This document shows, piece after piece, positions 7,517-61,377 of a stretch of DNA of 64,000 nucleotides. The position numbers and the translations under genes were made by a program. The stretch covers positions 3,083-67,082 of the forward strand of contig JBAZBH010000005.1 of the NCBI GenBank assembly GCA_041671565.1, read 5' to 3'. Each line of letters opens with the position of its first letter. The stretch's first letter is position 1. The stretch comes from Patescibacteria group bacterium (GTDB lineage: Bacteria > Patescibacteriota > Patescibacteriia > JACRDY01). A model generated the notes under the pieces. The model had not been told where the DNA came from, searched no databases, and worked only from the letters and a program-made list of their open reading frames with translations.

Positions 7517-8587
7517 ATGATTGGTTTTTTTGCCATCAAAATTGCCGTTTTGACGACACTGGGGTTCGCGGTGGCGCTCCTTTGGACGCCGCTCTTGACC
7601 CATTTTTTGTATAAATATAAATGTTGGAAAAAAACCGTCCGCACCACAGCGCCGGACGGCGCCGGCACGCCGATATTTAACCAACTGCACCAGCACAAGG
7701 AAACCAATGTGCCGCGGATGGGCGGGCTATTAATTTGGGTGACGACTTTATTTTTGGCTTTTATTTTTTTGATCTTTTGCCCGATTTTCAGCACTTGTTC
7801 TTGGCTCCAGAGCTTAAGCTTTCTCAACCGCGCCGAGACTTGGCTGCCGCTGTTCACTCTGGTCAGCGCTTCACTGATTGGCCTCCTTGATGACATTTTG
7901 GTGGTGCGGGGTTTTGGCGAGAAGGGCAAAGGCGGGGGAATCCGCTTTCGCCATCGTTTGCTGCTCGTTTCGTTGATCGGTTTAATCGGCGGTTGGTGGT
8001 TTTACTTCAAATTGGATTGGGACTCAATCCATATCTTGTTTGATGGCTCGCTGGCGCTCGGTTGGCTGTTTATCCCATTTTTTATTTTGGTGATGATCGC
8101 GATGTTCAGTACCAGCGTGACTGACGGACTGGACGGCCTGGCCGGCGGGTTGTTTATGATTATGTTCGTCGCTTATGGCGCGATTGCTTTTGCCGGCGGC
8201 AAGGTTGACTTGGCGGCTTTTTGCGGCGTGATTGCGGGCACCCTGGCGGCTTTTCTCTGGTTTAATATTCCGCCGGCCAGATTTTATATGACCGAAACAG
8301 GAATTTTGGGTCTCACCACCACTCTCGCGGTTGTGGCTTTTCTGACCAACGCGGTTTTACTTTTGCCAATTATCGCCTTCGTGCCGCTGGCCGAATCCGG
8401 CTCGGTGATTATTCAGCTCTTGTCCAAAAAATTTCGAGGCAAAAAAGTCTTCCTCTCTTCACCCTTGCACCATCACTTGGAGGCCAAGGGCTGGCCCGAA
8501 GCCAAAGTGGTGATGCGGTTTTGGCTGATTGGCGGGGTGACCGCTATTATTGGCGTGGCGCTGTTTCTTCTAGACAAGACTTTTTAG
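7517..8587 (+). CDS. mraY: phospho-N-acetylmuramoyl-pentapeptide transferase MraY
   Basis: Polytopic membrane protein with MraY motifs LIGLLDDILVV and STSVTDGLDGLAGG. Confidence 0.8.
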   Translation: MIGFFAIKIAVLTTLGFAVALLWTPLLTHFLYKYKCWKKTVRTTAPDGAGTPIFNQLHQHKETNVPRMGGLLIWVTTLFLAFIFLIFCPIFSTCSWLQSLSFLNRAETWLPLFTLVSASLIGLLDDILVVRGFGEKGKGGGIRFRHRLLLVSLIGLIGGWWFYFKLDWDSIHILFDGSLALGWLFIPFFILVMIAMFSTSVTDGLDGLAGGLFMIMFVAYGAIAFAGGKVDLAAFCGVIAGTLAAFLWFNIPPARFYMTETGILGLTTTLAVVAFLTNAVLLLPIIAFVPLAESGSVIIQLLSKKFRGKKVFLSSPLHHHLEAKGWPEAKVVMRFWLIGGVTAIIGVALFLLDKTF

Positions 8588-8595
8588 AATTATAT

Positions 8596-11500
8596 ATGAA
8601 TGAAGAATTTACTAAAAATTATTTAAATCGGATAATAGAAACCCATAAAAGCGGTCAGGCGACCGAGCATTCTTATCGTCCGGCACTTCAGGAATTGTTT
8701 GAAAAAGTTACGGCTTTAAGAGTTCATAACGAACCAAAACGGAGCGAATACGGCGCGCCGGATTTTGTTTTTGTCAACAAAAAGATTATAGTCGCTTACG
8801 CTGAAGCTAAGGATATTAATGTTTCTCTTAATGAAATAGAAAAGAGCGAGCAAATGATCCGTTATTATGGTTATACTAATATCATTTTAACCAATTCTTT
8901 GGAATTCAGATTTTATAAAAGCGGCCAAAAGTTTTATGAGCCGATAAAAATTGCCGAATTAAAATCAGGAGAAATTATTGCAGTTGAAGAAAATTTTAAG
9001 TTATTAGATGATTCCATAAAAGATTTTATCAGCGAGGCTAATGAGCCGATAAAATCCGGCGCGGTTTTGGCTAAAGTGATGGCGGGTAAGGCCCGCCGTA
9101 TTCGGGATAACATCAAGAAATTTTTAAAAGAAGGCAATACGCCGGCAAATGAAAGCTTGCTGTCCGTGTATAATGTTATTAAAAGATTACTCTTGGCTGA
9201 TTTGGATCATGATAAATTCGCTGATATGTACGCCCAGACGGTGGTTTATGGTTTATTTGTGGCGCGTTATAACGACGATACCCCTGATACTTTTTCCCGC
9301 CAAGAGGCGCGCGATTTGGTGCCGAGGTCAAATCCATTTTTACGCAAATTTTTTGATCATATTGCCGGGGAGGATTTTGACAAACGGATAGAGTTTATTG
9401 TTAGCGAACTTTGCGAGGAATTTATTCATGCCGATGTAAAGGCGATCGTCCACGATTATTATAAAGTGGAAAAGGATGACAGTCGCGACCCGATTATTCA
9501 TTTTTATGAAGATTTCTTGCAGGAGTATGACGCGGCCGAACGCAAAAAAATGGGAGTTTTTTATACTCCGTTGCCGGTGGTGCGGTTTATTGTGCGGGCG
9601 ATTGATGATGTGCTTAAAAAAGAGTTTGGTTTAAAGGGCTTAGCTGATACTTCTAAAGTGGAAATTCAGGGTGTCAGCCAGGGCAAGAAATATAAACAAA
9701 GCGTCCATAAAGTTCAGATACTTGATCCGGCCACTGGCACCGGTACATTCCTTAACGAAGTAATTGAGTATATTGAAAAATCATTCACCGGTCAGAAAGG
9801 CCGTTGGGTCAGTTATGCCCAGGAGGATCTGTTGCCCCGCCTTCACGGGTTTGAAATTATGATGGCCTCATACACCATCGCCCATCTTAAACTTTCCACC
9901 ACGCTTAAGGAGGGCGGAGTGGATATGGGCAAGGGGCGATTAGGCGTGTATTTGACCAATAGCTTAGAAAAAGCTGAAAGCTATGACAATACTCTTTTTG
10001 CCGGTTTGGGATTGGGTCAGGCAATCACCGATGAATCAGTTGCGGCCAATAAAGTCAAAAACGATCTGCCGATAATGGTGATATTAGGAAATCCGCCCTA
10101 TAATGTCAGTTCGCAGAATAAAGGCGAATGGATTGGCGAGTTGATAAAAGATTATAAGAAGGATTTAGGTGAAAGAAAGATTAACTTGGATGACGATTAT
10201 ATTAAATTTATTCGTTTTTCGCAGTATTTAATAGATAAAAACGGTGAAGGAATTATTGGCATGATTACCAATAATTCATACATAGACGGCATTACCCATC
10301 GGCAGATGCGCAAAACCCTTTTAGAGTCATTTGACTGTATTTATGTTTTAGATTTACACGGCAATGCCAAGAAAAAAGAAACCGCGCCCGACGGTGGTGT
10401 CGATCAGAATGTATTTAGTATTATGCAAGGCGTATCTATTACGATTTTTGTCAAAAAAGCCGGCAAGAAAAAAGCCCTCGGCGCGGTTTATCATGCTGAA
10501 TTATTTGGCAAACAAAAGGATAAATATGAGGCGTTGAACAACGCGACTATAGAAAAAATAAAATGGAAGAAGCTTGACTATAAAGAGCCTTATTATTTTT
10601 TTGTACCTAAAGATTTTAGTTCGCAAGAAGATTATGATAATGGTTTCTTAATAACAGATCTTTTTGATATTTATTCAGCTGGGATAAAAACAAAAGTTGA
10701 TGATATAGCAACTGATTTTAGCAGAAATATTTTATTTGACAGAATAAATAAAATTTTAACAAATAAGCCGTCGTTAAAAGAGCTTATTACTCAATATAAT
10801 CTAGGGACAAATACCACATGGGAATACGAAAAGGCGAGCAGGGCAATTTTTGATGAGTCAAAAATAAGAAATTTTTCATATAGGCCATTTGATTATAGAT
10901 TTGTATATTTTGATCACGATTTTTTATCTAGAAGTAGAAAGAAGGTTATGGAACACATCGTGAAGGATAATTTAGCACTATCTTTTATTCACCAAGGAAG
11001 AAATAAGGGAGTAGAAGCTCTAATTACAAAAGAAGTAACTTGTGAAGATTTTATTACAAACCATACTTTTACGGCTCCACTTTATCTTTACGATGGAAAA
11101 ATAAAAATGGGTGCCTCGGGAACTATTGAGGCCGAAAGAGTGCCAAATCTAAATTTGTTGATTGCAAGAAAGATCGCAGAATGCGTTGAGATGGTTTACT
11201 ACCCGGTTGCGGAATATGAAACTATTAAACCAGACAAGCGTCTTACTCCAGAGAACATCTTAGATTATATTTACGCGGTTTTATATTCTCCAAGTTATCG
11301 CGAGAAATATAAGGAGTTTTTGAAGATTGATTTTCCGCGCGTGCCATATCCCAAAGATGAAAAACAGTTTTTTGCGTTGGCTAGATTGGGCGAGGAATTG
11401 CGTCATCTGCATTTATTGGAAAGTCCGAAAGTTGATAATCCTATTACCACTTATCTAATAGCGGGCGATAATTTAGTTGAAAAAGTTAATTATCAAGATG

Positions 11501-11727
11501 GCAAGGTTTATATCAATAAAACCCAGTATTTTGTCGGAGTACCAGAAGAAGTTTGGAATTTTTATATTGGCGGCTATCAGCCGGCGCAAAAATGGCTTAA
11601 AGACCGCAAAGGCAGAAATCTTGCCAGTGAAGATATTGAACATTATCAAAAAATGATTGTTTCTATTTTTGAAACAATAAGAATTATGAAGGAGATTGAT
11701 CAAATTGTTGAAAAAAATAGTAAATAA
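8596..11727 (+). CDS. Type IIL/IIG restriction-modification enzyme, MmeI family (fused PD-ExK endonuclease, N6-adenine methyltransferase and TRD)
   Basis: N-terminal nuclease motif GAPDFVFVNKKIIVAYAEAK (D..E.K), MTase motif I ILDPATGTGTFL, motif IV ILGNPPYNVSS, total 1043 aa. Start taken at the ATG at 8596 because the track start 8521 overlaps mraY. Confidence 0.8.
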   Translation: MNEEFTKNYLNRIIETHKSGQATEHSYRPALQELFEKVTALRVHNEPKRSEYGAPDFVFVNKKIIVAYAEAKDINVSLNEIEKSEQMIRYYGYTNIILTNSLEFRFYKSGQKFYEPIKIAELKSGEIIAVEENFKLLDDSIKDFISEANEPIKSGAVLAKVMAGKARRIRDNIKKFLKEGNTPANESLLSVYNVIKRLLLADLDHDKFADMYAQTVVYGLFVARYNDDTPDTFSRQEARDLVPRSNPFLRKFFDHIAGEDFDKRIEFIVSELCEEFIHADVKAIVHDYYKVEKDDSRDPIIHFYEDFLQEYDAAERKKMGVFYTPLPVVRFIVRAIDDVLKKEFGLKGLADTSKVEIQGVSQGKKYKQSVHKVQILDPATGTGTFLNEVIEYIEKSFTGQKGRWVSYAQEDLLPRLHGFEIMMASYTIAHLKLSTTLKEGGVDMGKGRLGVYLTNSLEKAESYDNTLFAGLGLGQAITDESVAANKVKNDLPIMVILGNPPYNVSSQNKGEWIGELIKDYKKDLGERKINLDDDYIKFIRFSQYLIDKNGEGIIGMITNNSYIDGITHRQMRKTLLESFDCIYVLDLHGNAKKKETAPDGGVDQNVFSIMQGVSITIFVKKAGKKKALGAVYHAELFGKQKDKYEALNNATIEKIKWKKLDYKEPYYFFVPKDFSSQEDYDNGFLITDLFDIYSAGIKTKVDDIATDFSRNILFDRINKILTNKPSLKELITQYNLGTNTTWEYEKASRAIFDESKIRNFSYRPFDYRFVYFDHDFLSRSRKKVMEHIVKDNLALSFIHQGRNKGVEALITKEVTCEDFITNHTFTAPLYLYDGKIKMGASGTIEAERVPNLNLLIARKIAECVEMVYYPVAEYETIKPDKRLTPENILDYIYAVLYSPSYREKYKEFLKIDFPRVPYPKDEKQFFALARLGEELRHLHLLESPKVDNPITTYLIAGDNLVEKVNYQDGKVYINKTQYFVGVPEEVWNFYIGGYQPAQKWLKDRKGRNLASEDIEHYQKMIVSIFETIRIMKEIDQIVEKNSK

Positions 11728-12680: not shown

Positions 12681-13181
12681 TTACCGAAAAAAATCAATGT
12701 CGCGCGCATAAGCGTAATCAACGACTTCATACGGTTTTGAATAGAACCAAGGCGCTTCAAGGTGCGTTTGGGCAACGATTTTTTCGGTCGGCCAATTTCC
12801 GAATTCGTCACAAATTTGTTTGAGTAATTTTTTTTGATTGACGGAGAAAACAGATTCATCAAAATTTTTTACATCTTTAATCTCAAAACTAATCATTTCG
12901 CCGTCCATATAATTGACTGATTTAGTATCAATTGCTCCTTCAGTTTTAAGTTTAGAAAGAATTTCATCAATTCGTGATGGTACGGGACCATAGCCCTGAT
13001 GTATATACACATCGCCAGTAACTGTTTTTTTATGATCACGAAAATATATAAAATCAAGATAATACAAAAGTTTATTTAGCTTTGTAGCATGTAAATACTG
13101 ATTATTACAGTATTTAATAAAATATAGGACGGCGTTATTGTAAACTCGCTCGTCAATTGCAGGGCAGATAGCTTTGACCAT
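12681..13181 (-). CDS. Panacea-domain (DUF4065, SocA-like) antitoxin
   Basis: KLNKLLYYLDFIYF...IHQGYGPVPSRI matches the Panacea signature (KLxKLLYY ... YGPV). The track gives a TTG start at 13223 that lies inside a TTGACA promoter box; the ATG at 13181 is preferred. Confidence 0.55.
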   Translation of the reverse strand: MVKAICPAIDERVYNNAVLYFIKYCNNQYLHATKLNKLLYYLDFIYFRDHKKTVTGDVYIHQGYGPVPSRIDEILSKLKTEGAIDTKSVNYMDGEMISFEIKDVKNFDESVFSVNQKKLLKQICDEFGNWPTEKIVAQTHLEAPWFYSKPYEVVDYAYARDIDFFR

Positions 13182-13258
13182 ATTGTTATCTGCATAATAA
13201 CATAAATAAGTATTTTTACGCAATTAAATCTTGTCAAGAATTAAGCTGTGTAAAACTT

Positions 13259-13322: not shown

Positions 13323-14069
13323 ATGCATTTAATCCAAGAAAAATTGTTAAATTTAGCTAAAAATAATAATTTAACTGATTTAACATTAAGGAAAATAGGG
13401 GAATTAATCGGCGAACCGAATAGTCCCCAAAAAATAAAGCATCATTTGGATAAATTGATTGCCAAGGGTCTTCTGTTGGTCGGCGCTGACGGCAAGGCGT
13501 TAAAAGTCGCTGCTAGCGGCCTAGATGAAAAATCAAAGTTAGTTTCTTTGCCAATCGTTGGTTCGGCCAATTGCGGCGAGGCGCTGATTTGCGCCGATCA
13601 AATAGTTGAGGGTTACCTAAAAATATCTTTAAAAATTTTGGGTGATCAATTTAAAAATAGGCTAAAGGATCTATTTATTTTGCGCGCGGTGGGGAGCTCA
13701 ATGAATCGGGCAAATGTGAAAGATAAAAGCATCGAAGACGGAGACTTTGTGGTAGTCGAAAAGAATCAAGGAATTCCAGTTAGCGGCGAGTATGTGGTAT
13801 CGATAATTGATAATATGGCGAATATAAAAAAGTTTTTAGTTGATAAAAAAAACAGACAAATTGTTTTAATATCTGAATCAAATTTTAATATCCCTCCGAT
13901 CTATATACATGAGGATGATCTTTCTAATTATTTAGTTTGCGGCAAAGTGGTTGATGTTATCAAAAAACCGGATGAGCTTCTGTTCGCCAGAGACGAATCA
14001 GCCAAAGACATTTTGAAAACTATTGGTCCTATTTCCAGGGAAGACTATAATTATTATGAAAAATTATGA
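13323..14069 (+). CDS. LexA-like repressor (winged-HTH plus S24 self-cleaving peptidase) with a ~45-aa acidic C-terminal extension
   Basis: Aligns over the whole length to LexA: DNA-binding N-terminus, hinge LPIVGSANCGEA (LexA VAAGEP cleavage region), Ser in LRAVGSSMNRANVKD...DGDFVVV, Lys in ANIKKFLV; extra C-terminal tail DELLFARDESAKDILKTIGPISREDYNYYEKL. Confidence 0.8.
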   Translation: MHLIQEKLLNLAKNNNLTDLTLRKIGELIGEPNSPQKIKHHLDKLIAKGLLLVGADGKALKVAASGLDEKSKLVSLPIVGSANCGEALICADQIVEGYLKISLKILGDQFKNRLKDLFILRAVGSSMNRANVKDKSIEDGDFVVVEKNQGIPVSGEYVVSIIDNMANIKKFLVDKKNRQIVLISESNFNIPPIYIHEDDLSNYLVCGKVVDVIKKPDELLFARDESAKDILKTIGPISREDYNYYEKL

Positions 14070-14419
14070 TTAAAAAAGGCGATCTCGAGTTTGGCGATAT
14101 AGTCTGGACGGAGTTTGATCCTAGTGTTGGGCATGAGTATCAAAATAAAAGACCGGCTATAGTTATCCAATCCAATGAACAATTAAATAAATCTAATCTG
14201 GTAACAGTGATGCCGCTTACAACTCAAGCAGGCAATGTTACGGGAGATGATATTATAATTCCAACCGACCAAGATAATAGGTTGAGGGCGGATTCCGTCG
14301 CTAAGGTCTATTGTATAACTTCATTTGATTATAGTCGTTTTTCTAAAAAAATAGGTAAGGTTAATGCCAAATTGATTATTGCCCTGAAGGAGTATTTAAA
14401 AAAGCATTTTGATCTTTGA
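14066..14419 (+). CDS. mazF: MazF/PemK-family endoribonuclease toxin
   Basis: KKGDLEFGDIVWTEFDPSVGHEYQNKRPAIVIQSN matches the MazF/PemK core (GDIv..dFdP..GhEq...RPalVl); ATGA start/stop overlap with the lexA-like gene. Confidence 0.8.
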   Translation: MIKKGDLEFGDIVWTEFDPSVGHEYQNKRPAIVIQSNEQLNKSNLVTVMPLTTQAGNVTGDDIIIPTDQDNRLRADSVAKVYCITSFDYSRFSKKIGKVNAKLIIALKEYLKKHFDL

Positions 14420-14584: not shown

Positions 14585-15979
14585 ATGAATGCTTTGGGCT
14601 TAAAAAATAAAAAAGTTCTAGTGATGGGGCTCGGCCTCCACGGCGGGGGGCTGGGCGTGACCAAGTGGCTAATCAAACAAGGCGCGCGGGTGACGGTGAC
14701 TGACTTGAAAACTAAAGAACAGCTGAAAGCTACCCTCCGAGAACTTAAAAGTCTGCCCATCAAATATGTTTTAGGCCGCCATCAGCCGGCCGATTTTAAA
14801 AATGCCGATTTGGTGATCCAAAATCCCGGTGTGCCGAGCGAATCGCCGTTTTTAAAAATTGCCAATAAAGCCGGCGTGCCAGTGGTAACCGACATGAGTT
14901 TGTTTTTTGAGCGTTGTCCGGCGCCGATTATTGGTATTACCGGCACTAAGGGTAAAACCACCACCACGACTTTAATCGGCAAGATTTTTCAGTCTGCCGG
15001 TAAAAAGCCGATTGTCGCCGGCAATATCCGAGTTTCGCCTTTGGATTTTTTGAATAAAATCAAGAAAAATTCCAGTGTGATTCTGGAGCTGTCGTCTTGG
15101 CAACTGGAAGGCCTCGCGCCGCTTAAAATCAGCCCGCAGATTGCTTTGATTACTAATCTTTCGCCCGATCACCTGAACCGCTATCGGTCACTTGGGGATT
15201 ACATTAAAGCCAAAACCCTCATTTTCAAATTTCAGCAGCCGGAAGACATTTGTATTTTAAACCGCGATAATCAAGCCAGTCGTCAGCTCGCGAAGTTGGT
15301 GCCCAGCCGGCTATTCTGGTTTTCCAAAAAGTATTTTACTAGCGGGAACGGCGGGTTTATTAAAGATGGTTGGCTGCGATTCCGTTCGGGAAATAAAACA
15401 GTTAAAGTGATTAAAACTTCGGCGGTCAAAATTCCCGGGGAACATAATTTAGAAAATATTTTAGCGGCGCTATCGTTGGCGCTAGTGGCCGGTGTTTCAT
15501 TGGCGGCGGTTCGGCAAGCGATAAAGCAGTTTACCGGCGTCAGCGACCGGCTGGAGTTAATTAAAACCGTTAAAGGTGTCAGCTATTATAATGACACGAC
15601 AGCGACCGCGCCGACAGCCGCGATCCAGGCTTTAAAAACTTTGGGCGGGCAAAAGAAAAATATAGTTCTCCTTGCCGGCGGGGCGGACAAGAAATTAGAA
15701 TTTGGCGAATTTGCCCAAGCGATAAAAAAATACGCCAAAGCCGTGGTGCTCTTTCGCGGGTCGGCGAGCGTTAAACTTAAAAAAGAATTGTTAAAATTAA
15801 ACTACTGGGTCATGACGGAAGTCGGGAGTATGCCGGCCGCGGTCAGCGCCGCGCAAAAATTGGCGCGAGCGGGCGAAATTATTTTACTCTCGCCGGGCGC
15901 GGCCAGTTTCGGGCTGTTTATTAATGAGTTTGATCGGGGAGAACAATTCAAAAATATCATTAAAGTATTAAAACATTAA
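14585..15979 (+). CDS. murD: UDP-N-acetylmuramoylalanine--D-glutamate ligase MurD
   Basis: N-terminal VLVMGLGLHGGGLGVTKWL Rossmann, Mur ligase GITGTKGKTTTT P-loop, 464 aa. Confidence 0.9.
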   Translation: MNALGLKNKKVLVMGLGLHGGGLGVTKWLIKQGARVTVTDLKTKEQLKATLRELKSLPIKYVLGRHQPADFKNADLVIQNPGVPSESPFLKIANKAGVPVVTDMSLFFERCPAPIIGITGTKGKTTTTTLIGKIFQSAGKKPIVAGNIRVSPLDFLNKIKKNSSVILELSSWQLEGLAPLKISPQIALITNLSPDHLNRYRSLGDYIKAKTLIFKFQQPEDICILNRDNQASRQLAKLVPSRLFWFSKKYFTSGNGGFIKDGWLRFRSGNKTVKVIKTSAVKIPGEHNLENILAALSLALVAGVSLAAVRQAIKQFTGVSDRLELIKTVKGVSYYNDTTATAPTAAIQALKTLGGQKKNIVLLAGGADKKLEFGEFAQAIKKYAKAVVLFRGSASVKLKKELLKLNYWVMTEVGSMPAAVSAAQKLARAGEIILLSPGAASFGLFINEFDRGEQFKNIIKVLKH

Positions 15980-16036
15980 AACTTGAAAACCAGGTGTGGC
16001 AAATTTGTTTTAATGTTTTAATGTTTTAATGTTTTT

Positions 16037-17143: not shown

Positions 17144-17149
17144 GGGAGA

Positions 17150-17400
17150 ATCATGAATCAAGAATTAAGAATCAAGAAGGTCGGTAAACGGTGTTTAATC
17201 TTTAAGTCTAGTTAGAATGTCCAATATCCAAATCCCAATGTCCAATCAATGTCCAATGACCAAAGGTGGCTATCCCGAAGCGACCCCGTTGTGGCTTGGA
17301 CATTAGTCATTGGGTCCGCCGAATCGGCGGATGGTCATTGGAGCTTGGACATTGATCATTTATTCTTGATTCATGATTCTTAATTCTTGATTCTATTTTA
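17150..17400. repeat. about 240-nt intergenic imperfect palindrome built from GAATCAAGAAT and CCAATG words
   Basis: atcatgaatcaagaattaagaatcaagaa...tccaatatccaaatcccaatgtccaatcaatgtccaatgacc...ccgccgaatcggcgg...ttcttgattcatgattcttaattcttgattc; the arms are reverse complements. Confidence 0.65.
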
Positions 17401-24651: not shown

Positions 24652-26016
24652 ATGAAAATTTCTTTTCATGGCGCGTGCCGGGAGGTAACCGGCTTTTGTT
24701 GTTTGGTGGAGACGGACGCCGCCAAGTTTTTGGTGGACTGCGGCATGTTTCAGGGCGGCAAATTTGCCGAAGAACATAATCTTGATCCTTTTGGTTTTGA
24801 CCCGAAAACGATTGATTTTGTTCTGCTGACCCACGCCCACGCCGACCATTGCGGCCGTTTGCCGCGGCTGTATAAAGAGGGTTTCCACGGCCAGGTTTAC
24901 GCCACCGAGCCGACCAAAGACTTTGCCCGGATTATGCTGCTCGACTCGGCGCGAGTGATATTTTCTGAGGCGCTCGCGGAAAACCGTTTGCCGCTTTACC
25001 TCGCCGAGGATGTGGAGGGCGTGATGGCGCTATTTAAAGAGCAGAATTATCGGGAGCCATTTCAGCCAACAGCCGATATCCGTGTTCAGGCGCGCGATGC
25101 CGGACATATCTTGGGTTCGGCGTTCTTTGAAGTTTGGGTGAAAGAAGGCGGGGTAGAGAAGAAGTTGGTTTTCTCAGGCGACCTCGGTAACCCGCCCCAG
25201 CCGATTGTCCGCGATACCGAATTCGCGGATAGCGCCGACTTGGTTGTCCTGGAGTCAACTTACGGCGGGCGGATCCATGAACCGGCCGAAATGCGCCTCA
25301 AAATGCTCCAAGAAGCGATTACCGAGTCGGTGGGCCGCGGTGGCGTCCTGATGATCCCGGCTTTTGCCCTGGAGCGGACGCAAGAAGTGCTGTATGAACT
25401 GAACCACTTGGTGGAGAATAAACTGGTGCCGCCGGTGCCGATTTTTATTGACAGCCCGCTGGCAATTAAGGCGACGGAAGTTTATAAAAAATATATTAAT
25501 CTTTATGACGCCGAATCGCGCGCTTTGATCTCGGCCGGCGACGACCTTTTTAACTTTCCCGGCATTCACTACACGCCGACGCCGTCCGAGTCCAAGAAAA
25601 TCAACCAGTGGCCGGCGCCCAAAGTCATCCTCGCCGGCAGCGGCATGTTGGTGGGCGGGCGAATCGGTTATCACCTTAAATATAATCTGGGTGATCCGAA
25701 GAACCATTTGCTGATTATCTCCTGGCAACCGCAAGGCGGCCTGGGCCGGCAACTTCTGGAAGGCGCCAAGTCAGTGGTGGTCGCGGGCGAGCGGCTGGCG
25801 GTCAAAGCTAGAGTGTCGGCGATTGGCGCTTATTCCTCGCACGCCGATCAACCCAAACTTCTACACTGGGTTAAAATGATGGCGCAGAAAACACCGCAAA
25901 AGGTGTTTGTCGTCCACGGTGAAGAGAAGCAAAGTTTGATGGTGGCGGATGGGTTGAAGGAGAAGCTGGGGTTGAACGGGGTGGTGCCGGTAGTGGGGGA
26001 GGTATTTGAAATATAG
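24652..26016 (+). CDS. MBL-fold metallo-hydrolase, beta-CASP ribonuclease family (RNase J/CPSF-like)
   Basis: Metallo-beta-lactamase motif HAHADHCG plus a C-terminal beta-CASP-like region with conserved D/H residues (...AYSSHAD...VVHGEE). Confidence 0.65.
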   Translation: MKISFHGACREVTGFCCLVETDAAKFLVDCGMFQGGKFAEEHNLDPFGFDPKTIDFVLLTHAHADHCGRLPRLYKEGFHGQVYATEPTKDFARIMLLDSARVIFSEALAENRLPLYLAEDVEGVMALFKEQNYREPFQPTADIRVQARDAGHILGSAFFEVWVKEGGVEKKLVFSGDLGNPPQPIVRDTEFADSADLVVLESTYGGRIHEPAEMRLKMLQEAITESVGRGGVLMIPAFALERTQEVLYELNHLVENKLVPPVPIFIDSPLAIKATEVYKKYINLYDAESRALISAGDDLFNFPGIHYTPTPSESKKINQWPAPKVILAGSGMLVGGRIGYHLKYNLGDPKNHLLIISWQPQGGLGRQLLEGAKSVVVAGERLAVKARVSAIGAYSSHADQPKLLHWVKMMAQKTPQKVFVVHGEEKQSLMVADGLKEKLGLNGVVPVVGEVFEI

Positions 26017-26069
26017 CTGTAAGCTGTAAGGTATAAGCTGTAAATATAACGCATTTAAACCTCTGATTA

Positions 26070-26190
26070 CAGTCCAAAGTTCAATCCGCCGAATCGGCGG
26101 ACAAATCAGGTTCAAATGTCAAAACTCCGATAGCCTTTGATCTTTGAACTTGATTTGAACTTTGCACTTTGAACTTTGGATTTTTAACCA
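26070..26190. repeat. intergenic word-palindrome (AAGTTCAAA family) with core hairpin CCGCCGAATCGGCGG
   Basis: cagtccaaagttcaatccgccgaatcggcggacaaatcaggttcaaatg...tctttgaacttgatttgaactttgcactttgaactttgg; the same 15-nt core hairpin is present at 17296..17312. Confidence 0.6.
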
Positions 26191-26253
26191 AGTTTTATAG
26201 AAATAAGTTAACTTACCGGTATACTTACGGCTTATACCTTAAAGCTTACAGCT

Positions 26254-26285
26254 AAAAAACAACGGAGGTTAAATTCGTTGTTTTT
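26254..26285 (-). terminator. rho-independent terminator for gyrB (minus strand)
   Basis: AAAACAACG-N11-CGTTGTTTT read on the minus strand, followed by a T-run. Confidence 0.5.
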
Positions 26286-26303
26286 AGTAAGGCTAAGTTT
26301 TTT

Positions 26304-29693: not shown

Positions 29694-29744
29694 AGATTTA
29701 GGATTTAAGAAGGTTGATAATCAGCATTTTGACCAGTAATCATG

Positions 29745-29875
29745 CTCAAAAGTTCAAAATCCAAAGATTCAAAGTTCAAATCAAATCCAAAGGCCAAAAG
29801 CGGCTTCATGGTTAATCTAGAATAACCATTTGATATTTGAACTTGATTTGAACTTTGGGTTTTGAACTTTGTACT
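29745..29875. repeat. intergenic word-palindrome (AAGTTCAAA family)
   Basis: caaaagttcaaaatccaaagattcaaagttcaaatcaaatcc...gatatttgaacttgatttgaactttgggttttgaactttg. Confidence 0.6.
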
Positions 29876-33751: not shown

Positions 33752-34600
33752 TTAAGACCTTTTATTTTTTGTCAGAATTATCACCCGATCTCGGCCGGCG
33801 AGGTCGGTTTTTATTTTTAGCCGGTACGCGGGCAGGTGTTTTTGGGCGAGGAGTTTTAAGGCCGGGGCTTGGTCGCAGCCGATTTCCAGGAAAATCAGGC
33901 GGGGTTTTTGCCGGCGGGCGGCGAGTTGGCTGAAGAGTTGGCGAAAGAGTTTTAACCCGTCTGGCCCGCCGAGCAGGGCTTGCCGCGGCTCGGCTTGAAT
34001 GGACGGCTCGTTTTTGACTTCAGCGGCGGTTAGATAGGGCAGATTAGCAATTAAAATATCCAGTTTAATATTCTTTAACGGTTCCAGCAAGTTGCCCTGT
34101 TTAAACTTAATCTGGCCTTTGACGCCGTGGAGGCGGGCGTTTTTTTCGGCAACTTTTAGGGCAGGGCGGGAAATGTCAGTAGCATAGATTTTGGCTTGGG
34201 GCAGGTGTTTAGCAAGGGTGACGGCGATACAGCCGGAGCCGGTGGCAATATCGCCGATAGCCGATAGCCGATAGCTCTTAGCAATTCTTAAAACCTCATC
34301 AATTAATAATTCGGTGTCGGGGCGGGGGATAAGGGTGTTTTTATTGACTAGGAAATTTAGACCGTAAAACTCTTGCTGGCCGGTTAAATAAGCGACGGGC
34401 ACGCCTTTTAAACGGCGAGTAACTAGTAACTGGTAAGCGGTAACTAAGGATTGGTTAACTTTATATTCCGGATGGCTATACAAAAATTCCCGCGGTTTTT
34501 TTAAAACGAGGGAAAGGAGGATTTCGGCGTCCAAGGCTGGTGAAGATGAATAACGGTTTAGCCGTTTGGTGGTGATAGTTAAGAGTTGGCGAAGGTTCAT
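33752..34600 (-). CDS. prmC: release factor glutamine N5-methyltransferase PrmC (HemK)
   Basis: SAM motif I DIATGSGCIAV, motif IV ILIANLPYL (NPPY variant), located directly downstream of prfA; contains a 3x7-nt tandem repeat at 34253..34273. Confidence 0.75.
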   Translation of the reverse strand: MNLRQLLTITTKRLNRYSSSPALDAEILLSLVLKKPREFLYSHPEYKVNQSLVTAYQLLVTRRLKGVPVAYLTGQQEFYGLNFLVNKNTLIPRPDTELLIDEVLRIAKSYRLSAIGDIATGSGCIAVTLAKHLPQAKIYATDISRPALKVAEKNARLHGVKGQIKFKQGNLLEPLKNIKLDILIANLPYLTAAEVKNEPSIQAEPRQALLGGPDGLKLFRQLFSQLAARRQKPRLIFLEIGCDQAPALKLLAQKHLPAYRLKIKTDLAGRDRVIILTKNKRS

Positions 34601-34607
34601 AAAATAA

Positions 34608-34785
34608 GCTCAAAAGTCAAAAGTCAAAGCTCAAAACCACAACGCAAAAGGCAAAACTACAGTTCTTAACCCCTTATTCAAAAGATTTACTTATCCTCTT
34701 CTAATACCTTTGGTATCAAGTACGGAGAAGATTAAGTTTTGAGTTTTGAGCTGTGGTTTTGACTTTTGAGCTTTGAGTTTTAAGT
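34608..34785. repeat. intergenic word-palindrome (AAGTCAAAAG / CTCAAAAC words) between prmC and prfA
   Basis: ctcaaaagtcaaaagtcaaagctcaaaaccacaacgcaaaaggcaaaactacag...gttttgagttttgagctgtggttttgacttttgagctttgagttttaag. Confidence 0.6.
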
Positions 34786-35823
34786 TTGTTTCCGGCTGGC
34801 TTCTTTCAACGCCGCGACGACTTCTTCAATCTCGCCATTCATGATCCGGTCAATGCCAAACCAGCTTTGTTTGATGCGGTGATCGGTCAGGCGGTCCTGG
34901 GGGAAGTTATAAGTGCGGATTTTCTCGCTGCGGTCGCCGGAGCCGACTTGATTTTTGCGGAGATCCGCCTCTTCTTTTTGGCGTTTTTCTTCCTCGGCTT
35001 CAAGGAGGCGCGAGCGCAGGACTTTCATCGCTTTCTCGCGGTTCTGCAGTTGGCTCCGTTCGTCTTGGCAGGAAACCACCACGCCGGTGGGCAAGTGGGT
35101 GATGCGGACGGCCGAATAAGTGGTGTTGACCGATTGACCACCATGGCCGCCGGCGCAAAAAGTGTCGATCCGCAGGTCTTTGGGGTTGATGGCGATGTCG
35201 ATTTCTTCCGCCTGAGGCAAAACCGCGACCGTGGCCGCCGAAGTATGGATCCGGCCGGCTTTCTCGGTTTCCGGTACCCGTTGGACGCGGTGGGTACCGC
35301 TTTCAAACTTCAGCTCGCCATAAACCCCCGGGCCGTTGATTTCACAGATCATTTCTTTGTAGCCGCCAATCTCGGTGCGGTTAGCCTCAATCACCTTGAC
35401 CTGCCAGCCGCGCTTTTCGGCGTAGCGGGAATACATCCGGAAAAGGTCAGCGGCAAAAAGCGCTGATTCGTCGCCGCCGGTGCCGCCGCGAATTTCCAAA
35501 ATAATGCTTTTCTGGTCGCGCGGGTTGGCCGGGTGCAAGAGGTCGTCGATTTCTTTTTCCAGCTTTTCTTTTTGGCCGCGCAATTCAAAAAGATCCACCT
35601 CGGCCAGTTCTTTCAGGTCCGGGTCGTTGTCGCGGAGCGTCAGCTCGCTTTCGCCGATTTGCCGGTCCACGGTTTCCAGTTGGCGGACCCGGTCCATGAT
35701 TTCCTTGGCGGCGGCGTATTTTTGCGACAGGCTTTTCAATTTTTGCGGGTCAGAACCGAGGCTCGGGTCTTGGAGATCGCGCTCCATGGCGAGAAAGTCG
35801 GATTTGAGTTGGGGGATATTCAT
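34780..35823 (-). CDS. prfA: peptide chain release factor 1
   Basis: GGQ motif ([12 protein letters not shown]), RF1-type codon-recognition region; 347 aa. Confidence 0.9.
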
Positions 35824-35899
35824 AAAGGAGATTTAAGATTTAAGATTTAGGATTTAAGAAGGCCGGTAGATTAGCATCCTACAATATAACTTGGTTAAA

Positions 35900-35968
35900 A
35901 TCACATAACACATAACATGGAACAAGGGTGGTTATAGGTCTCTTGTTATATGTTCCATGTTATGTGAT
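35900..35968. mobile_element. MITE-like hairpin element copy 2 (same 25-nt arm as 3061..3128) flanked by 8-bp direct repeat CTTGGTTA
   Basis: aaCTTGGTTAaa|ATCACATAACACATAACATGGAACA-loop-TGTTATATGTTCCATGTTATGTGAT|atCTTGGTTAtt; sits at the centre of the prfA-rpmE intergenic ATTTAAGATTT word-palindrome (35826..36045). Confidence 0.55.
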
Positions 35969-36093
35969 ATCTTGGTTATTAGTCTTAACACCAATTACCG
36001 ACATTCTTAAGTCTTAAATCCTAAATCTTTCAACAAAAAACCCCATTCCACTATAGCAAAAATTTGCCAAAAAAGGAATGGGATTTGGAGTAG

Positions 36094-36423
36094 TTACTTA
36101 GATTTTTTGGCTGGTTTAGCCGGAGTTTCTTTCTGGACGGATTTTTCCGCGGCGGCGATTTTCGCGGCGGCGCGTTTGGCCTGTTTAACCTTTTTATCGG
36201 TGCGGCCAGAGGCGGCGGTAGCGGATTTCACCAACCGTTGTTTGAATTTATCAACTCGGCGGGCGGTGTCAACCAGTTTCTGATTGCCGGTGTAGAACGG
36301 GTGGCACGCCGAACAAAGCTCGGTGTGGATTTCCGGCACGGTGGAGCCAATAGTAAAGCTGTTGCCGCAAACACAGGTAACCTTGGCTTCGGGGTAGTAT
36401 TTAGGATGGAGGTCTTTTTTCAT
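36094..36423 (-). CDS. rpmE: 50S ribosomal protein L31 with Lys/Ala-rich C-terminal extension
   Basis: [10 protein letters not shown]...CVCGNSF...[13 protein letters not shown] (L31 Cys motif), then about 40 aa basic tail. Confidence 0.85.
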
Positions 36424-36524
36424 AAAAATAGGATGTTAGGAGGTTAAGTAGTTAGGAGGTTAGGTAGAGTTTAAAAGTGAAAGCAGTATAACATAGGAAA
36501 GGAGATAAAGCAAGAGATGGGTAT

Positions 36525-42578: not shown

Positions 42579-42701
42579 TGTAAAATTTAAAAATCAAAAT
42601 GGAAAATGACAATTTAAAATTAAAAATGTCTGGTAGAATAGCTGATTCATTAAATCGCCGAGAAGCTGGCAATTTTACATTTTACACTGTCATTTTCCAT
42701 T

Positions 42702-43952
42702 TTGATTTTTGATTTTTCAATTATGTACTTCTTGGACGCGATAAAAATGGCCGAACGCAACTTGCTCGCCAACAAAAAGCGGGCGGTTTTGACTATCTTA
42801 GGGATTGTTATCGGCATTACGGCGGTGATTGTGATTATGGCAGTTGGCGCCGGCGCGCAAGGTTTGGTGGTGGGGCAGATCAATAGCCTCGGTTCAAACT
42901 TAGTCGGCATTTTGCCGGGCGGCGGCGACAGCAAAAGTCCGCCGGCTTTTGTTTTTGGCATTATTATTACCACTCTCAAAAATGACGATATCTACGCGAT
43001 TCGGCGTCAAGTGCCGGCCGTGGTGGCGGCTAGCGGTATTGTCACGGCGAACGAAACCGCGTCGCATGAAAATCAGAGCGGCGCTTTTAGTATCTATGGC
43101 TGTTCGGCCGAGTTTCCGGCGGTGAATGATCTGGAGGTGGACAGCGGCCGCTGGTTCACCGAGGAAGAAGAAAAGGGCCTGGGCCGAGTGGCAGTGCTTG
43201 GCAGCCAGGTGGCAATCGATTTGTTTGAAGGCGATGATCCGCTGGGGCAGAAAATTAAAATTAAAAAAGAGTCTTTTACCGTGATTGGCGTGACTAAGCC
43301 CAAAGGCGCGGTGATGACCGAGAATTTCGACAAGACAATCTATTTGCCGGTGAGCGCGGCGCAGAAATTGATCCTCGGGATTGATTACCTCAATTTTGCC
43401 CGGGTGAAAATCGACGAGGCGGCTAATATCGGGCCGGCGATTAGCGAGATCGAAAGTATTTTACGCGACCGGCATAATATTGATAACCCGAGCGACGATG
43501 ACTTTAGCGTCCGCGACCAGGCGCAGGCTTTGGATATTCTGACTCAAATCACCGACTATTTGCGGTTTTTTCTCGCGGCAGTGGCGGCGATTGCCCTCTT
43601 GGTCGGCGGCATCGGCATTATGAATATCATGCTGGTGTCGGTGACCGAACGGACTCGGGAAATCGGCCTCCGTAAAGCCGTCGGCGCGACCGAGGGCCAA
43701 ATTCTCCTGCAATTTCTTTTGGAAGCGGTTTTTCTCACCGTGATTGCCGGCGTGGTCGGAGTGATACTCGGCGGACTGATATCTTTTTTAATTTCTCTAG
43801 TCATGCAATCCTTGGGTTACAGCTGGCTGTTTAGTATTTCTTTTGGTTCAATCGTTTTGGCAGTTGGCGTCGCCGGCGGCATCGGCCTAGTTTTTGGCTA
43901 TTATCCGGCAAAACGGGCGGCGCGGCTGGATCCGGTGGAAGCGCTGCGATAA
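42702..43952 (+). CDS. ABC transporter permease, FtsX/MacB-like (4 TM plus large periplasmic domain)
   Basis: MacB_PCD-like periplasmic domain then FtsX domain (GGIGIMNIMLVSVTERTREIGLRKAVGA). Confidence 0.8.
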   Translation: MIFDFSIMYFLDAIKMAERNLLANKKRAVLTILGIVIGITAVIVIMAVGAGAQGLVVGQINSLGSNLVGILPGGGDSKSPPAFVFGIIITTLKNDDIYAIRRQVPAVVAASGIVTANETASHENQSGAFSIYGCSAEFPAVNDLEVDSGRWFTEEEEKGLGRVAVLGSQVAIDLFEGDDPLGQKIKIKKESFTVIGVTKPKGAVMTENFDKTIYLPVSAAQKLILGIDYLNFARVKIDEAANIGPAISEIESILRDRHNIDNPSDDDFSVRDQAQALDILTQITDYLRFFLAAVAAIALLVGGIGIMNIMLVSVTERTREIGLRKAVGATEGQILLQFLLEAVFLTVIAGVVGVILGGLISFLISLVMQSLGYSWLFSISFGSIVLAVGVAGGIGLVFGYYPAKRAARLDPVEALR

Positions 43953-47885: not shown

Positions 47886-47899
47886 TTTTCTTTTGGGGG

Positions 47900-48005
47900 A
47901 GTCCACAGTCCAGAGTCCGGAGTGAGCTGTTAGCTAATAAATCCCAAGGGGATCCCTTTGGGACTCTGAGCTTTCTCTGAACTCCGGACTCGGGACTCTG
48001 GACTC
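47900..48005. repeat. intergenic word-palindrome (GTCCGGAGTC family, as at 6811..6898)
   Basis: gagtccacagtccagagtccggagtgagc...gaactccggactcgggactctggactc. Confidence 0.6.
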
Positions 48006-54635: not shown

Positions 54636-54786
54636 AAAGATTTAAGATTTAGGATTTAAGATTTAAGAATGGTCGGTAATCAGAGTTTAGACTAATAAAC
54701 CAAACTGAAAGTTCAAAATCTAAAGAATTAAGGTAATTCAAAACGGAGTTTATTCTTAAATCTTAAATCCTAAATCTTAAATCTCT
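54636..54786. repeat. intergenic word-palindrome (ATTTAAGATTT family)
   Basis: gatttaagatttaggatttaagatttaagaa ... ttcttaaatcttaaatcctaaatcttaaatc. Confidence 0.6.
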
Positions 54787-56486: not shown

Positions 56487-56632
56487 AAAATAATTTTTAA
56501 TTTTTAATTTAAAATTTCTAATCAATTTATAATTCTTAATTTTTAATTACCACGAACTTGGCTTTAGGTTTAAAAATTATAAATTAAACATTAGAAATTC
56601 ATTAAAAATTAAGAATTTTAAATTAAAAATTG
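56487..56632. repeat. AT-rich word-palindrome element, homologous to 33536..33690
   Basis: aatttttaatttttaatttaaaatttctaatcaa...aaattaaacattagaaattcattaaaaattaagaattttaaattaaaaattg. Confidence 0.55.
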
Positions 56633-59053: not shown

Positions 59054-59094
59054 GAATTAGGATTTAAGATTTAAGAATGTCAATTACCGGCGTC

Positions 59095-59250
59095 TAAGCC
59101 TCTGAACCTAATTAAAATGTCCAATATCCAAATCCCAATGTCCAATCAATGTCCAATGACCAAAGGTGGTAATTGGGTATTGGTTATTGGGATTTGATTG
59201 GTCATTGGAGCTTGGGCATTGGGCATTTTATAGGTAATTATAAAATTGTA
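59095..59250. repeat. intergenic word-palindrome (CCAATG family, same words as 17210..17290 and 41740..41830)
   Basis: aatgtccaatatccaaatcccaatgtccaatcaatgtccaatgaccaaaggtggtaattgggtattggttattgggatttgattggtcattggagcttgggcattgggcatttt. Confidence 0.65.
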
Positions 59251-59259
59251 ATTAAGTTT

Positions 59260-61377
59260 ATGTTAGATAAGCTATTTTCTCCTCGGTCGGTGGCCGTCAT
59301 CGGCGCCTCGCGCGATAAACAGAAGCTGGGCCATCAGGTGCTCGCTAATATCCTGAAATATGGCTATCGGGGCAAAGTTTATCCGGTTAATCCGGCGGCT
59401 GGCAAAATTTTGGGTTTGAAATGTTATCGCTCAGCCTTAGAAATCAAGGGCGCGGTTGATTTGGCGGTAGTGGCGGTGCCAGCCGCGGTGGTGCCACAAG
59501 TACTTGCCGAGTGCGGCCAGAAGAAAATTCCGTCTGCCATTGTGATTTCGGCCGGATTCAAAGAAATCGGCGGCGCCGGCGCGATTTTGGAAGCGGAGAT
59601 TAAAGCGATTGCCAAACAATATAGCATTAATCTTTTGGGGCCGAATTGCCTGGGGATTATGGATGTTGTTAGCCGCCTAAACGCTTCGTTTGCCGACGGT
59701 ATGATTAGTCCCGGCGGCGCGGCTTTCTTTTCCCAGTCCGGCGCGGTAGGCACAGCAATGTTGGACTGGTCCAAACAGAATAATTTTGGCTTTTCGCGGT
59801 TTATTAGCCTCGGCAATAAAGCCGATATTTCCGAAAATGAGATTTTGGAGTTTCTTGCTGAGGACAAAAATACCAAAGTGATCTTGGGTTATCTGGAAGG
59901 CTTTACCGACGGGCGGAAGTTTTTGGCAGTTTGCCAGAAAGCAACCGCTCTGAAGCCGGTGATTATTCTCAAAGCCGGCCGGACGGCAGCCGGGAAAAGG
60001 GCGATCACTTCCCATACCGGCGCGCTCGCCGGGCAGAATGAAGTGACCGCCGCCGCTCTCAAACAAGCCGGCGCGATTCAAGTTGATTCATTAAACGAGC
60101 TGTTTGACTACGCGCGGCTGTTCGCCAGTCAGCCCTTGATCCGGGGCAACCGGTTGGCAATTGTCGCTAATGCCGGCGGACCGAGCGTGATGGCAACTGA
60201 CGCGGTGGTAGAAAGCGGTTTGCAACTGGCTAAACTTTCTGACTCGACTCTAAAAAAATTAAAAGCGGGTTTACCGGCCACGGCCGCGATTCATAATCCC
60301 GTGGATTTAGTCGGTGACGCGCGGGCTGATCGGTTCGAGCTCGGCTTAAACGCGGTGCTGTCTGACAAAGCGGTTGACGCTGCGCTCGCGATTTTGACCC
60401 CGCAGACCATGACCGAGGTAACTAAAACCGCCGAGGTAATAGTTAGTTTGAGCCGGAAATATGGCAAAACCGTGGCGACGAGTTTTATCGGTGGGGCAAA
60501 AGTGGAACCGGGGATTAAAATTTTAACCACGGGCGGAGTGCCGAATTTTCTTTATCCGGAGGCGGGGGTGAGGGCGATGGGGGCAATGGCGGGGTATCAG
60601 AGAGCTAGAAAGTTAGAAAGCCAGAAAGTTAGGATGCGGGTGGTTGATTTAAAAACATGGAAAGTGGTGGGAGGGTTATTAAACGGGGGTGGGGAACAGG
60701 TGGGGTGGCAGACAGCTGAAGAAATACTGAAGATTTATAAAATCCCGATGGTTAAGTCGGCGGTGGCGGCGGATGCCGGGGTGGCGGTTAAACTGGCTGG
60801 CAAGTTTAAGTATCCGGTGGTGCTGAAAGTCGCGGCCAAGAAGCTCCTCCATAAAACCGACGCCGGCGGGGTGCTGGTTGGATTGAAAACCGCGGGCGAA
60901 GTTGAAACGGGCTTTAAAAAACTGAATAAAATCGCCAAAAAATTTGGCGGGGAAGTGTTAATCCAGCCGCAAATTCTGGGCGGGCGAGAGATAATTATGG
61001 GCGTCCGCCGCGACCCGCAGTTTGGGCCGGTGGTGATGTTTGGCCTAGGCGGGATTTACACGGAAATTTTGAAAGATGTGGTGTTCCGCGTGGCGCCGCT
61101 GGATCAGGCCGAGTCTTTAAAAATGATTCAGGAAATTAAGGCGTTCAAGCTGCTTAGCGGCGCGAGAGGGGAAAAAGGCGTTAAACTCGCGGCGCTCGCC
61201 GACATGCTCTGTAAACTTTCCGAGTTGGCAACGGACTTTCCGCAGATTGAGGAGGTGACGCTGAACCCGGTACTCGCTACAACTAAAGGTTGTTTGGCGG
61301 TAGATGTGAGAATAATTACGAATTACGAATTAAGAATTAAAGTCAAAAGGCAAAATTTAAAAGTTAAGGAGAATTAA
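59260..61377 (+). CDS. acetate--CoA ligase (ADP-forming) family protein (CoA-binding, succinyl-CoA-synthetase-like and ATP-grasp domains, fused)
   Basis: CoA-binding N-terminus (SPRSVAVIGASRD...GYRGKVYPVNP), ligase-CoA domain, C-terminal ATP-grasp (YPVVLKVAAKKLLHKTDAGGV). The start is taken at the ATG 59260 because the track start 59173 runs through the CCAATG palindrome. The C-terminal 20 aa are encoded by TACGAAT/AAGAATT word repeats. Confidence 0.7.
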   Translation: MLDKLFSPRSVAVIGASRDKQKLGHQVLANILKYGYRGKVYPVNPAAGKILGLKCYRSALEIKGAVDLAVVAVPAAVVPQVLAECGQKKIPSAIVISAGFKEIGGAGAILEAEIKAIAKQYSINLLGPNCLGIMDVVSRLNASFADGMISPGGAAFFSQSGAVGTAMLDWSKQNNFGFSRFISLGNKADISENEILEFLAEDKNTKVILGYLEGFTDGRKFLAVCQKATALKPVIILKAGRTAAGKRAITSHTGALAGQNEVTAAALKQAGAIQVDSLNELFDYARLFASQPLIRGNRLAIVANAGGPSVMATDAVVESGLQLAKLSDSTLKKLKAGLPATAAIHNPVDLVGDARADRFELGLNAVLSDKAVDAALAILTPQTMTEVTKTAEVIVSLSRKYGKTVATSFIGGAKVEPGIKILTTGGVPNFLYPEAGVRAMGAMAGYQRARKLESQKVRMRVVDLKTWKVVGGLLNGGGEQVGWQTAEEILKIYKIPMVKSAVAADAGVAVKLAGKFKYPVVLKVAAKKLLHKTDAGGVLVGLKTAGEVETGFKKLNKIAKKFGGEVLIQPQILGGREIIMGVRRDPQFGPVVMFGLGGIYTEILKDVVFRVAPLDQAESLKMIQEIKAFKLLSGARGEKGVKLAALADMLCKLSELATDFPQIEEVTLNPVLATTKGCLAVDVRIITNYELRIKVKRQNLKVKEN

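Follow-up and report, generated by a model that had tools for sequence, protein, structure and literature searches.

A hairpin in the putative prfA leader of a Patescibacteria genome belongs to a class of dozens of intergenic hairpins composed of seven-letter words

The hairpin at positions 35900-35968 of the window (the whole 64-kb stretch of a Patescibacteria genome that was analysed) is one of dozens of intergenic hairpins made from seven-letter words, and a classical transposon-derived MITE is not shown. Our best explanation, to which we give a probability of roughly 45%, is that it is a REP/REPIN-like dispersed palindromic repeat, a copy of which a trans-acting process placed at the tip of an older palindrome within the prfA leader. 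On the strength of sequence comparison, we argue that the conserved unit is the word and not a fixed element with defined termini. The arms of copies are nearly identical whereas the loops differ, words have been reshuffled, and words have been retained for a long time. Together, these features mark the words as the constrained or propagated unit and argue against a recently transposed fixed element.

The hairpin lies where the first-pass annotation of this DNA had placed it. It consists of two 27-nt arms and a 15-nt loop and folds well above shuffled sequences. Arms, loops and flanking repeats are given here without strand. Two heptamers, ACATAAC (W1) and ATGGAAC (W2), compose the arms: the left arm (35900-35926, ATCACATAACACATAACATGGAACAAG) reads ATC-W1-W1-W2-AAG, the loop occupies 35927-35941 (GGTGGTTATAGGTCT), and the reverse complement of the right arm (35942-35968) reads ATC-W1-W2-W1*-AAG, in which W1* is ATATAAC. 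The 7-nt units lie head to tail, and TRF reports period 7 at 35902-35917 (CACATAA x2.3) and again at 3063-3078, in the second copy of the hairpin. The element is thus an inverted pair of two alternating words, three per arm, and not a direct array of a single unit. As terminal inverted repeats the arms are 81% complementary, and they make up almost the whole element. Because the word order is swapped between them, the stem is either interrupted or paired in a register shifted by 7 nt, in which 20 nt pair at 95%. The predicted folds of the two strands have energies of -26.8 and -23.7 kcal/mol (z -5.0 and -5.5 against shuffles). Word order is unequal between the arms of every copy, so that the hairpin is never perfect. 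This leaves no consistent pairing for a covariance model of the ACATAAC/ATGGAAC family and argues against simple selection for pairing.

Scans for known RNA and expression signals found little at the element. Only tRNAs reached threshold in an Rfam scan of the window, and the matches at the element were generic miRNA-precursor hairpins far below threshold. A promoter and terminator scan found neither there. We rejected the reading as an intrinsic terminator, since the stem is A/U-rich and interrupted and the scan reported no terminator at this position. The loop resembles the right flank, and an inverted 7-mer is seen at the copy at 3061, which raised the idea that loops derive from flanking sequence; with p ~0.04-0.05 before correction and four tests per copy, we treated the resemblance as chance.

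The second copy of the hairpin has its arms at 3061-3087 and 3103-3128 and its loop at 3088-3102. On one side it is bordered by an amine-oxidase-like gene and on the other by a small membrane ORF, and an Rrf2/NifU/cysteine-desulfurase cluster follows downstream; both copies are in spacers of co-directional genes. The first-pass annotation had described this copy as sharing a 25-nt left arm with a different loop and no obvious duplication, which is what we find, and had called for occurrences of the arm to be counted genome-wide. Within the 64 kb covered here there are exactly two (3061 and 35900), with 0 expected. The left arms match at 27/27 positions and the right arms at 25/27 (52/54 in total), along with 5 nt of left flank (TTAAA), but the loops have only a short TGG..ATAG core in common. 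A recent copy of a whole element would look otherwise, and the annotation's description of the element as recently mobile is therefore not borne out.

Related copies were found in three other genomes. A scan that took a single genome from each species and looked for the two word cores as an inverted pair recovered three Patescibacteria MAGs (L001, L002 and L003). L001 carries three copies within 8 kb; these have a common loop and differ by swaps of whole words, in which CAT is replaced en bloc by TGG. In L002 and in L003 (a Moranbacteria MAG), the W1 and W2 words occur in yet other orders, mixed with variants such as ACATAGC and ATGTAGC. The hairpins of L001-L003 begin a few nt past the stop codon of the upstream gene, and the neighbouring genes differ in every genome. 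In one of the L001 copies, a 41-nt G+C-rich double hairpin (TCCCGACGGCAGAGCCGTCGAGGATCCTCGATTAAATCGGG, L001 6101-6141) lies inside the left arm of the ATGGAAC/ACATAAC hairpin and represents another hairpin-in-hairpin event.

These copies bear directly on the possibility that the hairpin, its second copy and its flanking repeat are coincidences of AT-rich intergenic sequence. We regard this as highly improbable, given that the 25-nt arm occurs twice where none is expected, that fold z-scores reach -4 to -5.5 and that three other genomes hold related copies. Chance is refuted for the hairpin and its second copy and applies at most to the flanking repeat, which taken alone has p ~0.005-0.015 and was noticed among many hairpins inspected.

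The flanking repeat is present as originally described, with CTTGGTTA at 35890-35897 and 35971-35978 on either side of the hairpin. It extends to 12 nt with an 11/12 match (ATAACTTGGTTA at 35886-35897 and ATATCTTGGTTA at 35967-35978). If the element is bounded as AAATCAC...GTGATAT (35897-35970), the 7-nt sequence CTTGGTT abuts both ends. When 69-nt segments were placed at random, an equally good flanking repeat turned up for 0.3-0.5% of positions across the window and for 1.5% of those within repeat-rich spacers. The window holds some 50 hairpins, and so the repeat, though improbable for a single element, is not decisive.

The surroundings of the hairpin are themselves palindromic. The outer palindrome has arms at 35835-35868 and 35996-36029 and is centred at 35932, 2 nt from the centre of the inner hairpin at 35934, so the annotation was right to place the hairpin in the middle of an ATTTAAG-word palindrome. 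The array on the prfA side (35829-35868) consists of GATTTAA/GATTTAG heptamers and GGCCGGTA (AGATTTA x4.4 by TRF) and reaches to within 5 nt of the prfA start codon (ATG at 35823), whereas the arm on the rpmE side (35996-36029) is made of TCTTAAA words. Next to the hairpin is a linker module on the minus strand (35971-36008, AAGAATGTCGGTAATTGGTGTTAAGACTAATAACCAAG), related copies of which follow outer word arrays at 17180, 54672, 59070 and 29712. Its diverged inverted partner on the plus strand (35860-35899) pairs with the linker in the predicted sense-RNA fold. Deleting the element and one repeat copy in silico yields a small palindrome, ATAAC-TTG-GTTAT, whose position coincides exactly with the centre of the outer one, with the empty-site junction ...ATAACTTGGTTATTAG.... 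As the sequence stands, ATAAC and GTTAT are still paired in the sense-RNA fold, and the extra bases derived from the repeat form an unpaired internal loop next to the inner hairpin. The restored tip and this fold are consistent with what duplication of the tip would leave. In the paralogous linker at 54672 the corresponding stretch is present a single time, which likewise speaks for an insertion, and a repeat of this quality is improbable by chance for one element (0.3-1.5%). However, the right copy of the repeat is also the end of a linker module found elsewhere in the window, which counts against an insertion duplication; the first-pass annotation had foreseen that the repeat might belong to the surrounding word-palindrome. 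We consider the repeat about as likely as not to be the footprint of a real insertion.

A flanking repeat distinguishes the 35900 copy from the rest of its family. Among the six members tested, from four genomes, it alone has one; the copy at 3061 and the four in L001-L003 have no flanking duplication, with a longest flanking match of 3-4 nt over these five (2-4 nt at the copy at 3061). The annotation had named such copies as evidence against its own proposal, and they are the majority. The 35900 copy sits at the tip of a GATTTAA-word palindrome with a 7-8 bp duplication of that tip on both sides, and insertion targeted to tips accordingly rests on one site.

The same evidence weighs on a classical MITE, that is, a deletion derivative of a DDE-type IS that was mobilised in trans, with 27-nt TIRs and a 7-8 bp TSD, and that inserted recently into the outer palindrome. 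The arms can act as terminal inverted repeats, the 7-8 bp direct repeat is flush with AAATCAC...GTGATAT, a second copy has the same arms, and the site is empty in the closest relative (L086). Yet duplications are lacking at the five other copies tested, loops keep only their short core despite arms that match at 52/54, and words have been reshuffled both between genomes and between copies. In addition, the 69-74 bp comprise arms and loop only, the 64 ORFs of the window include no transposase, integrase or RAYT (the annotation had proposed a search of the whole genome for a cognate transposase), and a search of plasmid and phage records and viral contigs gave no similarity to a known mobile element. 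We consider this origin quite improbable. What endures of the MITE-like description is a dispersed, copied palindrome (with a 27-nt arm repeated 33 kb away), a nested structure that is absent in the closest relative and a tip palindrome that deletion restores.

The hairpin lies between prfA (34780-35823) and rpmE (36094-36423), with prmC (33752-34600) beyond prfA; all three genes are on the minus strand, and Pfam families supported their identities. Downstream of rpmE, on the minus strand, is a further hairpin (36038-36086, CCCATTCC...GGAATGGGG) with a T6 run behind it. An extended -10 (TGnTATAAT; TGCTATAGT, 36058 to 36050) lies in the loop of this hairpin, and the arrangement is kept in four genomes: the window, L086 (module at ~9950-9985), L087 (~5685-5745) and L006 (~1130-1150), with TGCTATAAT, TGGTATAAT and TGTTATACT in the three relatives. 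From motif conservation in these four genomes, we infer that the 36038-36086 hairpin is an rpmE terminator that overlaps the prfA promoter. It looks as though transcripts starting inside this terminator would lack its 5' arm and could not terminate there. With this assignment, the ~220 nt before the prfA ATG would be a 5' leader, and this putative leader is almost wholly nested palindrome. As sense RNA it is predicted to fold into a single rod of ~200 nt (-67.2 kcal/mol, z -8.3), whose 3' outer arm stops 5 nt short of the prfA AUG.

Translation starts in the window are nearly devoid of Shine-Dalgarno sequences. GGAG, GAGG, AGGAG or AAGGA was found at -20 to -4 of just one of 64 ORF starts. Start codons are preceded by T-rich sequence, typically TTT-ATG, which is often formed by the last words of a hairpin 3' arm. 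At 36429-36467, in the divergent spacer between rpmE and an APH-kinase gene, there are direct 8-nt arrays of TAGGAGGT, which on the rpmE strand read ACCTCCTA; the latter resembles the anti-Shine-Dalgarno sequence, in a genome otherwise without Shine-Dalgarno sites.

A position within a putative leader also fits a host cis-regulatory site, in which the inverted ACATAAC/ATGGAAC words would be an operator or RNA site for a conserved DNA- or RNA-binding protein that controls prfA and the Rrf2/NifU cluster. Conserved arms with free loops, words that are kept across deep divergence, and the placement of one copy in the inferred prfA leader and of the other upstream of an Rrf2-regulated cluster all speak for such a site. 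We nonetheless find it rather improbable, because neighbouring genes change from genome to genome, the hairpins of L001-L003 lie directly behind the stop codon of the upstream gene, no promoter-like site overlapping the element was found, and some 16 word families of like architecture are too many for dedicated regulators in such a genome.

Relatives in which the locus could be compared are distant. No relative exceeded 69% identity in prfA, with Falkowbacteria, Kuenenbacteria and Buchananbacteria at ~60-66%, and a metagenome scan combined with a search of 5.8 billion proteins gave no prfA relative closer than 64-69%. No strain-level empty site was found: the only assemblies that contain an identical rpmE protein are of this one genome (6329/6330 nt identical). 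An independent assembly of that genome (L005, Logan SRR18595301 contig) breaks exactly at the hairpin border, at window position 35970, which fits a repeat or hairpin confusing the assembler. We compared the two closest syntenic prfA loci. In the closest relative (L086, prfA 69%) the terminator/promoter module is kept, the putative leader runs ~25 nt to the prfA ATG and contains no palindrome of any kind, and the nested structure is absent from the orthologous rpmE-prfA spacer. In Falkowbacteria GCA_016218485.1 (L087, prfA 66%), the same spacer holds G+C-rich hairpins.

The words of the window are found elsewhere in these relatives. L087 contains palindromes of GATTTAA, AATTACG and TGTAGC words, and 82 12-mers are common to it and the window, compared to 5 for control 12-mers. 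Word palindromes lie at 2305-2383, 6961-7040, 9646-9722 and 12021-12057 in L087 and at 6588-6690 in L002. At orthologous spacers the word families are mostly different, the exception being the spacer upstream of FtsW/RodA, which has GATTTAA words in both the window and L087. L002 is 63% identical to the window in gyrB and 45% in RodA, and its RodA-to-116-aa spacer has a W1/W2-type hairpin where the window has AAGTCAA words. Thus, GATTTAA, AATTACG and ACATAAC/ATGGAAC are common to genomes that are 63-66% identical in gyrB or prfA, mostly at non-orthologous spacers. Common words combined with differing families at orthologous spacers indicate that the vocabulary is kept over deep divergence while positions turn over.

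Hairpins of this type are a general property of the window. There are 21 tandem arrays with period 7, compared to 0-3 for periods 5, 6 and 8-12, and the usual form is a heptamer array followed by its inverted complement. Word-hairpins occupy 21 of the 45 spacers of at least 50 nt: 17/31 co-directional and 4/7 convergent spacers, and none of seven divergent ones, two of which are probably ORF-calling artefacts (which would make it 0/5). Within the window, every one of them therefore lies downstream of a gene. Some 16 families of words can be recognised, including GATTTAA, AATGTCC, AAGTTCA, AGAATCA, GAGTCCG, AATTACG and TCAAAAG, several of them at two to four loci each. Examples lie at 6808-6894, 15967-16030, 17155-17393, 26014-26254, 34602-34791, 42589-42710, 47899-48005, 54638-54784 and 56499-56631. 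Words are mostly of 7 nt and sometimes of 8 nt, and the hairpins are often nested and modular, with roughly concentric nesting at, for example, 17144-17399 and 26017-26303.

Modules follow one another in the order outer words, linker, inner words and centre. The combination of GATTTAA words and linker (AAGAATGTCGGTAAT..GGTGTTAAGACTAATAACC) recurs at 54629, 59040 and 29694, and a related linker is found at 17180. The linker itself, of ~35 nt (GTCGGTAAnnGGyGTTwAgac..), is present at 17180-17215, 35971-36008 (minus strand), 54672-54707, 59070-59100 and 29712-29745, with various outer word arrays before it and various inner word arrays after it; the inner array differs at each locus of the outer-words and linker module (up to 5 loci). 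Two different nested word-palindromes also have one and the same G+C-rich mini-hairpin, CCGCCGAATCGGCGG, close to their centres (~17306-17327 and ~26090-26110); the first of these mini-hairpins lies within a word array, with GTCATTGG on either side. Elsewhere, an (ATTGGGC) x8 array at 59172-59227, the partner of an AATGTCC array at 59116-59163, overlaps the predicted TTG start of an acetyl-CoA-synthetase-like ORF (59173-61377), whose true start is probably further downstream.

We looked among these hairpins for a clue to the direction of transcription and for signs of selection on RNA. In 24 of 28 hairpins the 5' arm is A-rich and the 3' arm T-rich; the property is real, but it is the same on either strand, and we rejected it as a clue to the direction of transcription. 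The mismatches of 48 stems had no bias toward G-U over A-C (15 versus 19), and nothing in them points to selection on RNA structure.

Features of this kind could arise without a dedicated enzyme or function, if replication slippage expanded heptamer arrays and quasi-palindrome template switching copied them across a seed hairpin, with the flanking repeat as a by-product of local duplication. The dominance of period 7, the whole words gained, lost or exchanged between copies, and stem mismatches without RNA-strand bias speak for such a mutational process. Heptanucleotide repeats are moreover described as the most abundant long simple repeats in prokaryotes and attributed to polymerase slippage, according to the account of Mrazek 2007 given in PMC4679880. 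Mutation of this type leaves unexplained why two loci separated by 33 kb have an identical 27-nt arm and 5-nt flank, why words recur in genomes with just 63% identity in gyrB, why a vocabulary is shared with Falkowbacteria at non-orthologous spacers, and why divergent spacers have no word-hairpins. We judge it unlikely.

If the hairpin is a REP/REPIN-like repeat, as we prefer, it would have arrived as a copy of a hairpin at some other locus, through a process directed at hairpin tips. Copying would depend on a word-specific activity encoded elsewhere in the genome, outside the 64-kb window, and the arms might afterwards be kept by constraint or concerted evolution as the loop drifts. Against this reading are the absence of a candidate trans-acting enzyme from the window, a duplication in one copy of six, a total of two copies in the 64 kb covered, stem mismatches that are unbiased, and arms whose word order never agrees. 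The element would be transcribed within the ~220-nt prfA leader, starting from the conserved extended -10 in the rpmE terminator loop, and the predicted leader rod would bury U-rich sequence that lacks a Shine-Dalgarno site and extends to within 5 nt of the AUG. An effect on prfA expression or mRNA stability is conjecture.

Taken alone, the element is a small leader repeat; its value lies in exposing word-hairpins in about half of the longer spacers of this lineage. A bolder proposal, which we put forward as speculation and consider unlikely, is that some Patescibacteria (relatives of Falkowbacteria and Moranbacteria) have a combinatorial system of nested intergenic palindromes with a conserved 7-nt vocabulary, written and moved by a dedicated word-specific activity that targets hairpin tips. 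Such an activity might make 7-nt staggered cuts, whose repair would give both heptamer arrays and the 7-8 bp duplication. In genomes that nearly lack Shine-Dalgarno sequences, the word system would shape mRNA leaders and 3' ends, and the 35900 hairpin would be one caught insertion. A literature search of incomplete coverage gave no description of inverted heptamer-word hairpins with a common vocabulary in Patescibacteria. The density of perfect inverted repeats is highest in CPR phyla across the tree of life, for a cause left unexplained in that study (PMC13155455), and the word-hairpin architecture could explain it. If a dedicated enzyme or binding protein does act on the words, this would be a new mechanism of repeat propagation or gene expression in a major uncultured radiation; if slippage and template switching alone are responsible, the hairpins would show the effect of reduced repair on intergenic DNA.

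The window has other features of note. Genes for a type ISP restriction-modification enzyme (8521-11727), a SocA/Panacea antitoxin-domain protein (12681-13223) and a MazF/PemK toxin (14066-14419) lie in a stretch of lower G+C content (34-36% at 10-14 kb) amid housekeeping genes. The 591-nt 'spacer' between called ORFs at 7930-8520 looks coding, being G+C-rich and without word arrays. It probably represents a gene that was overlooked or is frameshifted, or else the type ISP ORF starts further upstream than called.

The hairpins resemble several known systems in part. Like integron attC sites, those of L001-L003 are imperfect palindromes (57-141 bp) close after an upstream stop codon, and ACATAAC and GTTATGT each agree by eye at 6/7 positions with the RYYYAAC and GTTRRRY boxes. 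Here, however, the boxes are tandem, and there is neither a cassette array nor intI. We rejected the attC reading on context, since the hairpins lie beside housekeeping genes (rpmE, prfA and prmC, and an Fe-S cluster operon) and the window has no integrase. Like the MITEs Correia/NEMIS, RUP and Nezha, the elements are small, non-coding, AT-rich and intergenic, have inverted-repeat ends and are able to fold as RNA hairpins, and a TSD-like direct repeat flanks one copy. In MITEs a duplication of fixed length is expected at nearly every copy, in contrast to one copy of the six tested here. Also unlike MITEs, no partner IS was found in the window for these elements of 69-74 bp, the arms consist of words that can be reshuffled, the loops are not conserved, and there are no near-identical full-length copies.

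Head-to-tail 7-nt units are shared with heptanucleotide tandem repeats, which include the STRR of cyanobacteria as well as TAACTGA repeats in Beggiatoaceae, Cyanobacteria and Bacteroidetes (PMC4679880). Such repeats nearly always consist of one word in direct orientation, whereas the units described here form inverted pairs that give hairpins, from many words and in nested, modular arrangements. The Beggiatoa genome, for example, has 169 direct sets of its heptanucleotide and one indirect repeat (PMC4679880).

The closest parallel is with the REP/BIME/REPIN sequences of Proteobacteria, which are associated with RAYT proteins. The differences are that arms here are tandem heptamers of variable order and number, that many word families with few copies each take the place of one dominant sequence, that no RAYT (PF01797-type) protein is encoded in the 64-kb window, and that one copy has a 7-8 bp duplication. 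Copy density is two in 64 kb of the window and three in 8 kb of L001, set against the tens to hundreds per genome by which REP/REPIN sequences are recognised. In both systems, short, imperfect extragenic palindromes lie downstream of genes, with none between divergent genes. Both have inverted doublets that form long hairpins with arms more conserved than the spacer, and both are dispersed, mostly without target duplication. REP palindromes are also known insertion targets for other elements.
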